NCBI GenBank assembly: GCA_947478395.1
Contig: CANJVR010000001.1
Span: 832,001-896,000, forward strand
Length of the DNA stretch: 64,000 bases
From: Opitutia bacterium
GTDB taxonomy: Bacteria > Verrucomicrobiota > Verrucomicrobiia > Opitutales > Opitutaceae
Reading direction: 5' to 3'
Part shown: piece by piece, positions 2,127-6,176 of the stretch
Numbering within the stretch: position 1 is the first letter of the stretch
Layout: each line of letters begins with the position of its first letter
Translations under genes and position numbers: made by a program
The notes under the pieces: generated by a model
Told to the model about the DNA's origin: nothing
The model's database searches: none
The model's input: only the letters and a program-made list of their open reading frames with translations

Positions 2127-2498
2127 ATGCCATTGCTCTTTGTCTACGGCACGTTGAAACGCGACGGTCCTAATCACGCTCACCTCGCCCTTCAGAAACT
2201 GATCGGCGCGGCGCGCACGGCGCAGGGGTTTACGCTGTATTCCCTTGGGGATTATCCCGGAATGGTGCGAGCGCCGGACGATCACGACGGTGTCACCGGT
2301 GAAGTCTGGGCGGTCGATGAAGCCTGCTTGCAACGCCTCGATCACCTCGAAGGCGTCGCCGAAAATCTTTACCGACGCGGTCCGGTTCCGCTCCGGGATC
2401 CGTTCGAAGCGTCCACGGTTCAAACCTATTTCTATCTGAGGCCCATAGCGGCGCGACCGCACGTCGGCGCGACTTGGCGCGGGGACGCGAACACGTGA
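2127..2498 (+). CDS. Gamma-glutamylcyclotransferase (AIG2-like) family protein
   Basis: LFVYGTLK, YPG, VTGEVW, LDHLEG and YRR motifs. Confidence 0.9.
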   Translation: MPLLFVYGTLKRDGPNHAHLALQKLIGAARTAQGFTLYSLGDYPGMVRAPDDHDGVTGEVWAVDEACLQRLDHLEGVAENLYRRGPVPLRDPFEASTVQTYFYLRPIAARPHVGATWRGDANT

Positions 2499-2528
2499 CG
2501 GAAAGAGACCAGTGAGATTTGGTCGGCC

Positions 2529-2996
2529 TTAGGTCTTTTCCAGATCTCGGGCTGCCACCCGTCGCACCACGGTAAATTTCGCTCGAAAAAGATCTTCCAG
2601 CGTTTCACGCACCTCGGCCGGAATCCTACTCACCAGTGAATCGAGCGAAGGCAGGGGTGCCTTGGCCGCGTCGGTTTCCTCCGGCGGAGCGGCCGACCCG
2701 GATACGACCGGCGTGACAGGCCCGCTGGGCTCCACCGCTAAAATGGGCCAGGCCGCGGCGCTGAATTCTTCAGTGGGCCACGGGGCCTCGTCATCGCCTC
2801 CCACGGGTGGTGCAACGGCTCCGGCCGCCAGCGCGGGCGCCGAGGCGCGGGTAACGGATGGCGCGTTTACGGCCTCTGAAAAATTCGCCACGGCCACCGG
2901 GCGGCTGACCTCAGCTGCCGATGGCGTCGCGCCCTTGTTATCCGAGTTCCGTGCCAGCGCGGTCTCTAGCCGTTGCTCCAACCGATCAATCAGGCC
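2529..2996 (-). CDS. Open frame in the -1 phase of dnaX; probable C-terminal extension of tau (alternatively a stand-alone ORF from TTG 2981)
   Basis: Open from the A10 run to the stop at 2529; Ala/Pro-rich linker ending in an amphipathic segment [20 protein letters not shown]; only a weak TTG start of its own. Confidence 0.6.
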
Positions 2997-4180
2997 TTTT
3001 TTTTTTCGCCTTCGTTGTCCGCGCCCACGACGGCCGGCGCGGTTTCGTCGGCGAGAGCGGCCAGTTCCTTGATCAAGCTGTCGATGGCCCGTGAACGGCT
3101 CGCATCGATGGCTTTCAGGAGCGTCACTTCGAAATTAATTTTTTCCGCCAACCCGAGTTTCACACTGCCTTCGCCCTCGCGTAGTCCATCAAGGAGGCGG
3201 GTCAGCTGCTCGGTCGTCATCGACCCGGCGGCCGCGCCACGGCCGGCCGCACGACCCAGCATTTCGCTCTTTCCGCCGTGAGCGATGGCGTCGAGCAGAG
3301 CGTGGCGTACGACGGCCTGCAGATCGGACAGGAGCCGCACGAGATCGCGCCCGGCGCGGTCGCACTCATCGACGATCGCGACGAGGCGCGCGTGATCCCC
3401 GGTCGCGAGCGTGGCCGCGAGTTCGGCCACCTTCTCCGCCGACACCAGGCCGTAGACATCGAGCACATCCGGCTCGGCGATCTCGGCCCCGCAGAAAGAA
3501 ATCATCTGGTCGAAGACCGACTGCGCATCGCGCATCCCGCCGTCGGCCATGCGCGCGATGCAGGCGAGCGCCTCGTCCGTCACTTTGATTTTCTCCTCAA
3601 CCGCGATTTTCTTCAGGCGCTCGACAATCAAATCCGCGGGGATGGGCTTCAGATCGAAGCGCTGACAGCGCGAGAGTATCGTCGGCAGAACTTTCTGCAC
3701 CTCGGTCGTGGCGAAGACGAACTTCACGTGCGGCGGCGGCTCCTCGAGCGTCTTCAGCAAAGCGTTAAACGCCTGCGGCGAGAGCATGTGCACCTCGTCG
3801 ATGATGTAGACCTTGAACTTGCCTTGCGCCGGCGAGTACCGCGCGGTTTCCCGCAGGTCGCGCACTTGGTCGACGCCGTTGTTTGAGGCGCCGTCGATTT
3901 CGATGACATCGAGATGCGAACCTTCCGCAATGGCCACGCACGCGGGATCGTTGACGTCAAAGTCTGCCTTCGGTCCGTCCGTGCAATTCAGCGCCTTCGC
4001 GAAGATGCGCGCGGTTGACGTTTTTCCGGTGCCGCGCGGGCCGACGAAAAGATAGGCGTGGGCAATCCGGCCGCGAGTGATCGCATTCTTCAGCGTGCGA
4101 ACAACGTGATCCTGCCCCACCACGTCGTCGAACGTCTGGGGCCGCCACTTGCGCGCGATGACTTGATAGGAAGAGGACAT
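2990..4180 (-). CDS. dnaX: DNA polymerase III subunit gamma/tau (zero-frame product 396 aa)
   Basis: [13 protein letters not shown], Walker [28 protein letters not shown] and SRC motifs. Confidence 0.98.
2996..3006 (-). other. Slippery site: A10 run including in-frame A_AAA_AAG
   Basis: Minus strand GGC GAA AAA AAA AAG GCC TGA; ten consecutive A at 3006-2997. Confidence 0.75.
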
Positions 4181-4290
4181 CTCAGGATGGAGGGGCCGCC
4201 GGCCGGCTACGGGGAGAGCAACGGAACCATGGCATCGCTGGCAAGCAAGCTCCTACCGCCGCTCAGATCCGATTCGCTCGGCAAAAAAAG

Positions 4291-4387
4291 TGGCCAGGCA
4301 CTCCACGGCACTGGGAGGACGTCGTTACCGTTGCTGCCTTCCGGCCCTGGCGGGGTTCACGCGCCTGCCCATGCATGGCACCTGGCC
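4291..4387 (-). ncRNA. ffs: Small signal recognition particle RNA (4.5S)
   Basis: ~97-nt hairpin with paired ends (GGCCAGGTGC...GTGCCTGGCC), domain IV core GAACCCCGCCAGGGCCGGAAGGCAGCAACGGTA, then a U7 tract; sits upstream of dnaX as in many bacteria. Confidence 0.93.
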
Positions 4388-4470
4388 GGCGCGAACCATG
4401 CGACGGCACTTCCGTCGCGCAACATCTATTTCCCGATCACCTGCGGCCCGCATTTCAACGCGGGCAGCAA

Positions 4471-4905
4471 TCAAGGATTGGCCCGTTTCGGGCGGGGCGG
4501 CGGCGGCGGACCGCGATCCTCACGCAAAAGCTCGCCCTGCCGCTCCTGCAGTTTTTCCAGTTTCTTGCGCTGCACGGGGGTGAGCTCACTGGCAAAATCG
4601 CCCTGCACCCGGCGCAAAATCACACCGGTTTCGCGCAGCCCATTCTGTCGGACCCGCCGGATGTCTTCCTCGGCGCGTTCAACCATCGGGCGGAATTTTT
4701 CGCGTTGTTCAGGCGTGAGGTCGAGCCGGTCCGCTAAATGACGGAGGATGCCCGGCAAGGGATTTAACGGCCCAGCGCCTGGACCTTGCACCGGCCGTCG
4801 GACGGCCGCCCGCTGGTCGAAACGCAACGCCAACAGTCCGCCGAAGATGGACCCGAAGATAAAAACCCCGACGAACGCCGCGATGACTTTCCAAGGCTTT
4901 TCCAT
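4471..4905 (-). CDS. Membrane-anchored Spy/CpxP-like helical periplasmic protein
   Basis: N-terminal TM helix; LDLTPEQREK and ELTPVQRKK LTxxQ repeats; third gene of an ECF module. Confidence 0.7.
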   Translation of the reverse strand: MEKPWKVIAAFVGVFIFGSIFGGLLALRFDQRAAVRRPVQGPGAGPLNPLPGILRHLADRLDLTPEQREKFRPMVERAEEDIRRVRQNGLRETGVILRRVQGDFASELTPVQRKKLEKLQERQGELLREDRGPPPPPRPKRANP

Positions 4906-4908
4906 ACG

Positions 4909-5220
4909 TCAGGATTCGTCGAACAACACGGCCACCGGATCGTCGCCGCTCAGGGACGAATCATCATCGCCGACCCAATTCGTGAGAAAGGTATAATTGG
5001 CCGCCACGCTGACCAGTGCCAGCAAACTGGCGACGCCCAAGGCCCGCAGAGAGAAACGCTCAAAAAGCGAAGCGACCGGCCGCTCCGCGGCAAAAGCCAG
5101 AGCCACGACTCGCGTGGAAAAACCATAAGGAGCCGCGGTCTCGCGTCCATCGGAGGTGGCCGCACGGCGGGCCCCGGCGGCGAGGCGGGCCCAAGGGTGA
5201 TTTGGATCGGACGGTTTCAT
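4909..5220 (-). CDS. Putative anti-sigma factor (single TM)
   Basis: ATGA overlap with the ECF sigma gene; APYGFSTRV motif followed by one TM helix. Confidence 0.7.
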   Translation of the reverse strand: MKPSDPNHPWARLAAGARRAATSDGRETAAPYGFSTRVVALAFAAERPVASLFERFSLRALGVASLLALVSVAANYTFLTNWVGDDDSSLSGDDPVAVLFDES

Positions 5221-5807
5221 GAACGTTCGCTGTCTTTTAGTTGTTGAAAAAATTTCTGCAACTTCCGTCTGGCGCGAAAAGCCCGCACTTTGATGAGTGA
5301 CTCGTTCCAGCCCGTGAGCGCGCTGATTTCGGCAATCGTCTTTTGCTCAAGATCCAGCAGCTGGATCACCATGCGGTCAGCGGGCTTGAGCTGATCGAGC
5401 AGCTTGTGCACGAGCTCGCGGGACGCGAGGGCGTCGTTGGCGGGGACATCCTGGGCGTTGGTGATCACCGCGTCCAAGACGTTGGCCTCGCTCTCGGAGA
5501 GGTCGGCCCAACGGAATTCGGGGCGGCGTTTTTGCGCGCGCAAGTGATCGATACAGGTCGTCAACGCAATGCGCGAAACCCAGTGCGACAGCGGCACCGC
5601 CCCCTCGTACTGATCGAGCCGGGAAAACATTTTCATGAAGACTTCCTGGGTGAGATCTTGCTCGAGTACCCGGCGCGGGAGATGGGCGCGCACAATCCGA
5701 ATGACAAGAGGGTGGAGGTGATCGACCAATTCGCGCGCCGCGACTTGATCACGCCGACGCACGCGTTCCAGGCAGCCCGGCACATCGAACGGCTCGTCGT
5801 CAGGCAT
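5217..5807 (-). CDS. ECF RNA polymerase sigma factor
   Basis: Start MPDDEP; region 2 DLTQEVF...WVSRIA...DHLR; region 4 IAEISALTGW...KVRAFRAR. Confidence 0.93.
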   Translation of the reverse strand: MPDDEPFDVPGCLERVRRRDQVAARELVDHLHPLVIRIVRAHLPRRVLEQDLTQEVFMKMFSRLDQYEGAVPLSHWVSRIALTTCIDHLRAQKRRPEFRWADLSESEANVLDAVITNAQDVPANDALASRELVHKLLDQLKPADRMVIQLLDLEQKTIAEISALTGWNESLIKVRAFRARRKLQKFFQQLKDSERS

Positions 5808-5842
5808 AGAAAGATGGAAGCAGCAACAGACACAGCCGGGAA

Positions 5843-5868
5843 GACGAGGCCACCCTCGAACGGTTACA
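5843..5868 (-). promoter_or_regulatory. ECF-type promoter, probably autoregulatory
   Basis: Minus strand TGTAAC-N16-CGTC, about 35 nt upstream of the sigma ATG. Confidence 0.6.
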
Positions 5869-6176
5869 GACACGACCGGGATTGTCCCGGCCAAACTCCG
5901 CGCGCCTAAAAATTCGGACGCAGCGGCGCCGGAGGTGCGCCTTGACTTCGCTCTAAACGTGCCGGTAGCAACAACGCTGCGAGATGTTTATTTTCTGCCA
6001 GGCCCATCGACTTACTAACACGCACGATCGCTAAAGCCGCGTAGCGGTTGATCGTGCGTTGGCCTGTGCGTTTCCCGTCGCCGCTCGTCTGCGGCCAGAC
6101 GGTTCGTCGGCTCGCTTCGGGCCGACTCTTCCTCCAACCTCGTTCCCGTCGTCCATTTTTTGCCCGTCTCGTTCCC

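Follow-up and report, generated by a model that had tools for sequence, protein, structure and literature searches.

The dnaX gene in the window, by which we mean the whole stretch of 64,000 nucleotides analysed here, is split at a run of ten A's, and this split is real and conserved. Programmed recoding almost certainly takes place at the junction, and the sequence comparisons suggest that Thermus-type transcriptional slippage at the run is probably the source of tau from this gene. The reversed two-ORF dnaX layout with A10 itself is already published (Antonov et al. 2013, PMC3711429); our modest addition is comparative evidence pointing to repeated frame change of the tau tail within one order.

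Anatomy of the split dnaX gene

ORF1 of dnaX lies on the reverse strand at 2990..4180 and encodes 396 aa comprising the clamp-loader AAA+ ATPase, the lid, and domain III. Domains I-III of DnaX were recognised in it (PF13177, PF22608, and PF12169), it scored 435.6 bits against TIGR02397 (cut-off 250), and the closest named dnaX records were from Opitutaceae (77-82% identity) and Puniceicoccaceae (62%). The frame closes at gamma length, after these three domains, and the default product would be gamma-like. In the zero frame ORF1 ends GAA AAA AAA AAG GCC TGA, so that the A10 run (2997..3006, reverse strand), the putative slippage site, is followed two codons later by the zero-frame stop TGA (2990..2992), and the heptamer A_AAA_AAG sits in zero-frame phase within the run. 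From the run onward no stop interrupts the -1 frame for 155 codons (2529..2996, reverse strand), until it ends in ...DLEKT and a TAA at 2531-2529; this frame would supply the tau extension. This anatomy, including a long product of about 550 aa, is what the original prediction had described, and the sequence confirms it. Polarity is likewise reversed relative to E. coli, as had been proposed, with gamma templated and tau one A away. With regard to the stops, the prediction had noted the zero-frame TGA but missed a third-frame TGA on the same strand (2986..2988), which begins four bases past the start of the zero-frame TGA and would terminate A9 and A12 transcripts at 397-398 aa. When the products were computed by run length, A10 gave 396 aa, A9 397 aa, and A12 398 aa, with A13 falling in the same 396-398 range, and the tail was read from A8 (549 aa), A11 (550 aa), and A14 (551 aa).

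The A10 run is not a product of chance, since it is the sole A/T run of at least 10 in the 3.31 Mb genome, where there are 124 such runs of 8, five of 9, and this single one of 10. The five A9/T9 runs are located at C2:858429, C3:283001, C3:423461, C4:205365, and C2:887474; four of them are in-frame Lys-Lys-Lys, either inside long open frames or where these begin, and one is apparently intergenic, and no split-gene pattern was seen at any of the five.

Directly 5′ of dnaX is the gene for the small SRP RNA (ffs; 4289..4387, reverse strand), identified by Rfam RF00169 at 66.1 bits against a gathering threshold of 40. Further 5′, at 4471-5894 of the same strand, are genes for an ECF sigma factor, a small membrane protein, and an LTXXQ-like protein, and 3′ of dnaX an APH-like phosphotransferase, a PP2C phosphatase, and a gamma-glutamyl cyclotransferase are encoded convergently on the forward strand (731-2498). 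No link between these neighbouring genes and the recoding site was seen, and a promoter and terminator scan of positions 2300-4600 found nothing.

Run, stops, and tail frame in relatives

For the family, 190 of 201 genomes matched and 131 loci were taken, the window's own included; six ran off contig ends, leaving 125 with the full junction. All 125 had between nine and twelve A's in a row (A9-A12) where domain III ends, and 122 were split as in the window, 107 with A10 and 15 with A9, each one extra A from the long frame; in three the tail was in frame. The run, the stop, and the -1 ORF are therefore conserved among relatives, as the original prediction would have it, and the reversed polarity is shared by the same 122 loci, in all of which annotation would show a short DnaX and a separate 'hypothetical protein'. 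A_AAA_AAG was in frame in 105 of the 122. In a first set from other families of the order, 17 of 18 loci were split in the same way and one requires the opposite shift; in the outgroup sample, 2 of 20 loci ran off contig ends.

The stops were then counted over the split-locus sets, which held 139 loci, one with an incomplete tail, so that 138 entered the tail counts. The zero frame was closed within 7 codons in 99.3% of these 138 loci, which had been selected for an early zero-frame stop. The third frame was closed within 7 codons in 132 of the 138, as against 21% of the 15,527 positions used as control. ATT was present in 62 of the 71 loci whose third frame stops immediately, and Ile in ORF1 is 75% ATC, a comparison that is partly circular because the loci were picked for the stop. 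In one Opitutaceae MAG (L172), an in-frame TAG lies two codons 5′ of an intact A10 cassette, at the end of dnaX ORF1; were it genuine, translation would reach neither the usual gamma end nor tau, and a point mutation or sequencing error is the probable cause.

Outside the family the run mostly persisted and the frame of the tail did not. From other families of Opitutales, 100 of 127 matched loci were sampled, and 74 of the 100 carried at least nine A's (A9-A11) at the same place. The tail was in frame in 33 of these 74, one A away (+1 A) in 24, and two added or one removed A away (+2 A/-1 A) in 17; 65 registers were assigned by a tail HMM (at least 6 bits) and 9 by the longest frame. Both off-frames closed within 7 codons in 56 of the 74 run-bearing loci and within 12 codons in 68. 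Run length was kept at 9-11 while phase and following base varied (T in 31, C in 23, and G in 20), and A_AAA_AAG was in frame in just 6 of the 24 loci of the +1 A register. At a constant A10, different clades held the tail in different frames, namely in frame in families f59 (×4) and f67 (×3) and in the +2 register in f41 (×6) and f65 (×4). Since whole clades differ at constant run length, the register pattern does not stem from homopolymer errors, although some of the single in-frame A11/A12 cases (L044, L056, L334, L335, and L348) could be assembly errors. Parsimony gave 19 register changes on a FastTree tree of 168 sequences (138 labelled) whose deep nodes are poorly supported, and because the loci are related, the locus counts overstate their independence.

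Several families with reduced genomes (f42, f46, f47, f56, and f69; 0.8-1.4 Mb) had no run of at least nine A's in any of the 17 sampled loci (L355-L360, L364, and L366-L375), several of which have a very short tail or none. In f71/f72, with similarly small genomes, A9 and the split were kept in four of four. Taking the order together, we consider it rather likely that Opitutales dnaX carries a frame-agnostic cassette, consisting of A9-A11 plus stops in both non-tau frames, whose register has changed repeatedly through all three frames and which is absent in several reduced-genome families; its natural alleles would fix the tau:gamma ratio through register alone, and the tail of the family would be a minimal one of linker and motif.

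Most dnaX open frames from other orders and classes were longer than 520 aa. Eighteen such loci, picked partly for short frames, included 13 without the run, 4 split at A10, and 1 with A9 and tau in frame. Because the five with a run (L150, L151, L155, L156, and L162), the last type having stops in both other frames, belong to other classes of the phylum, the recoding cassette reaches beyond Opitutales; given the partial selection for short ORFs, the counts yield no cassette frequency for those classes. Furthermore, eight single-ORF dnaX genes (L185, L187, L196, L211, L212, L218, L231, and L235), labelled as Bacteroidota, Ignavibacteria, Fibrobacteria, Desulfobacteraceae, and Leptospira, have A9-A11 about 331-360 codons past Walker A with off-frame stops nearby, and these runs are candidate Thermus-type sites, uncontrolled for background run frequency. 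Three further loci had unusual layouts. In L293 (G457:C3:1506189-1509068), dnaX matched with equal scores at two places 1,770 bases apart, either a tandem duplication or an assembly artefact, and the copy analysed has no A run. L198 and L238 have a short dnaX ORF1 followed by a long continuation in the +1 frame with no A run; an N gap lies near L238, and both layouts are possibly assembly errors.

Source and nature of the long form

We propose that RNA polymerase would realign on the T10 template and thereby produce a mixed mRNA pool, as for the A9 of T. thermophilus dnaX. Faithful A10 transcripts would give the 396-aa gamma-like subunit, and A9, A12, and A13 messages would also end at 396-398 aa, while transcripts with one extra A (A11), or with A8 or A14, would read the tail and give a tau-like subunit of about 550 aa, whose terminal motif would do the work of tau by binding the Pol III alpha subunit. 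Because slippage would reach all frames, the register of the tail in the DNA would be nearly free to drift. Two features of Thermus-type slippage were found here, a conserved homopolymer of at least nine A's and near stops in both non-tau frames. Among the pieces listed from contigs of three RNA runs (X18-X20, shares 0.05-0.10), none bridges the junction, and none of the indels listed for them lies at the run. Slippage is favoured since one and the same run is followed by the tail in three different registers and since run length, but not A_AAA_AAG, is conserved across the order; it is favoured over a ribosomal shift also by the lack of a conserved SD-like element or hairpin. Conservation of the third-frame stop argues in the same direction, as only a mechanism that enters that frame needs a stop in it and a pure -1 shift never does. 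The original prediction had held slippage to be at least as likely as ribosomal shifting, and the order-wide conservation of run length and the three frames of the tail now tilt the balance toward slippage. According to PMC4756838, tau has polymerase- and helicase-binding domains and gamma does not, so the long clamp-loader subunit would depend on transcription error.

Programmed -1 ribosomal frameshifting at A_AAA_AAG, of the E. coli type but reversed, is an unlikely principal source of tau for this genome. The heptamer, described as the most shift-prone in E. coli (PMC5009743), is in phase in the window and in the 105 split family loci mentioned above, and tandem Lys codons and the adjacent stop could help a shift; moreover, Atkins et al. 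2016 (PMC5009743) state that reversed dnaX genes apparently use ribosomal frameshifting and name Chlorobium phaeobacteroides among them as having stimulators. However, six A's and a G would suffice for such frameshifting, and the runs nonetheless hold 9-10 A's; it leaves the third-frame stop unexplained; for the 17 loci in the +2 register, a -1 ribosomal shift could not give tau; and 18 of the 24 other-family loci of the +1 A register lack the heptamer. Nor were conserved stimulators found. SD-like 4-mers upstream of the run were not enriched (35 of 139 split loci versus 646 of 2174 control windows, or 30%), and no downstream hairpin signal appeared in the 70 of 139 loci tested, with a mean z of -0.61 and z below -2 in 7% of the 70 versus 13% in the control. 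The window's own junction had a z of +0.18, which agrees with the earlier remark that no strong hairpin was seen there. Nevertheless, given the in-phase heptamer in those 105 loci, ribosomal -1 shifting may add to the tau output of slippage in the family.

Slipped-strand mispairing of the DNA, by which phase variation would toggle cells between gamma-only and tau-making states, is a much weaker explanation and very improbable. Homopolymers are mutable, and the few relatives with A11 or A12 and in-frame tau listed above would fit such toggling; the exact A10 split state, however, is held by 107 of the 125 family loci. The junction was covered with 0 gaps by contigs of all five DNA runs (X2, X5, X8, X13, and X14; studies P1-P5), and these showed no length variant, the evidence being assembled contigs, which drop rare variants, with X2 and X5 possibly from the same DNA as the assembly. 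Furthermore, gamma-only cells would be expected to replicate poorly, as gamma is without the polymerase- and helicase-binding domains (PMC4756838).

Whichever way it is reached, the tail (2529..2996) has a short conserved N-terminal segment, a Pro/Ala-rich linker, and a conserved C-terminal motif. Family tails run to 97-230 codons with a variable Pro/Ala/Glu linker, and the terminal motif, LPxLxxLVxRIPxxVRExLDELFRAKF..VRRV in the family alignment (2532..2672, reverse strand), is present in 119 of 121. By analogy with the role of tau in E. coli as described in PMC4756838, the motif is predicted to be the terminal segment of tau that binds the polymerase (Pol III alpha, DnaE). The same motif is found in one ORF with the ATPase in 45 of 100 other-family Opitutales loci (30 with the run and 15 without), in the three in-frame family loci, and in L173. 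These natural in-frame fusions are strong evidence, and they support the reading, made originally for the downstream ORF, that the -1-frame tail is the tau C terminus.

Profile and database comparisons returned less. The motif resembles the helix-plus-strand end of single-ORF Verrucomicrobiota DnaX, a weak likeness by hhalign (E 0.0011, probability 20%), and in the reverse profile search just 1 of 121 HMM hits exceeded 5 bits; outside the order, the family-motif HMM matched no single-ORF DnaX significantly, the best E for a full sequence being 0.03. No hit to the tail was obtained in Pfam or NCBIfam, Pfam searches of 52 tail members gave sub-threshold hits only, and no PDB sequence matched at E <0.5. 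Atlas matches to PF12362 (0.84) and PF12170 (0.83) are below 0.9 and serve as leads only. By eye, family tails are without an approximately 80-residue middle domain of several single-ORF Verrucomicrobiota DnaX (e.g., L161-L166).

Gene callers annotate the tail as a protein of its own (a 150-aa Atlas record), and a TTG at the codon of the 2981 TTG is more often the first start than any other, in about 26 of the 138 split loci. A separate small protein made from that TTG by translational coupling, with no recoding, is nonetheless highly improbable. The position of the first ATG, GTG, or TTG varies between codons 1 and 111, and 33 of the 138 tails lack an ATG altogether, so an independent start is unlikely; in addition, such a protein would leave the A run unexplained and sits badly with the 45 in-frame fusions.

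Finally, although homopolymers are prone to error, it is scarcely conceivable that the split is a sequencing or assembly error for a true A11, which the gap-free contigs of five DNA runs, reading A10 as the original prediction had it, and the identical split in 122 of 125 family loci rule out as far as contigs and relatives can show.

Comparison with known systems

Antonov et al. 2013 (NAR 41:6514, PMC3711429) described two-ORF dnaX genes in 12 genera, 17 in total, each of them -1 and nine having ten A's, so the novelty implied by the original prediction does not stand. They proposed slippage for the A10 genes, with the occurrence of both shift directions as the sign of slippage, and the corresponding GeneTack cluster is COF_239165634 (PMC4066793). 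The window dnaX matches that description in having a gamma-length ORF1, a -1 ORF at the poly-A, a conserved frame relation, and a tau tail. Adjacent ORFs, the -1 transition, recoding for tau, A10, and proposed slippage are all shared, and the layout does not differ; unlike their 17 genes, Opitutales dnaX also occurs here in +1 and in-frame forms. We found no literature on recoding in Opitutales dnaX or on three registers in one order, in a search mostly outside subscription papers, and the 17 genes may include Opitutales.

The locus family thus bears on a mechanism that has been read differently, as slippage by Antonov et al. 2013 and as ribosomal frameshifting by Atkins et al. 2016. The latter also use dnaX to illustrate how a change of one nucleotide can exchange the roles of the two products (PMC5009743), and Opitutales supply real cases of the polarity reversal there ascribed to a possible single nucleotide change. 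If the slippage reading holds, the registers would form a natural allelic series for asking what gamma is for and which tau:gamma ratio a replisome tolerates.

Compared with E. coli dnaX, in which a -1 frameshift is aided by an upstream SD and a downstream stem-loop, the window dnaX shares A_AAA_AAG in phase and gamma plus tau from one gene; it differs in its reversed polarity, in the lack of a conserved SD or hairpin among those sought, in a run longer than needed, and in a heptamer that the order as a whole does not conserve. Shigella flexneri mxiE (PMC1088944) is alike in that a non-templated extra base yields the long product of a two-ORF gene, and unlike in its U run and in being a transcription activator gene for an unrelated protein. 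T. thermophilus dnaX, whose A9 run is a site of transcriptional slippage (Larsen et al. 2000, cited here through PMC1088944 and PMC5009743), has in common with the window dnaX a run of 9-10 past domain III, near stops in both non-tau frames, and two DnaX forms. Tau is the templated frame there, whereas gamma is templated here; the Opitutales with in-frame tau, 33 of the 74 run-bearing loci, have exactly the Thermus layout.
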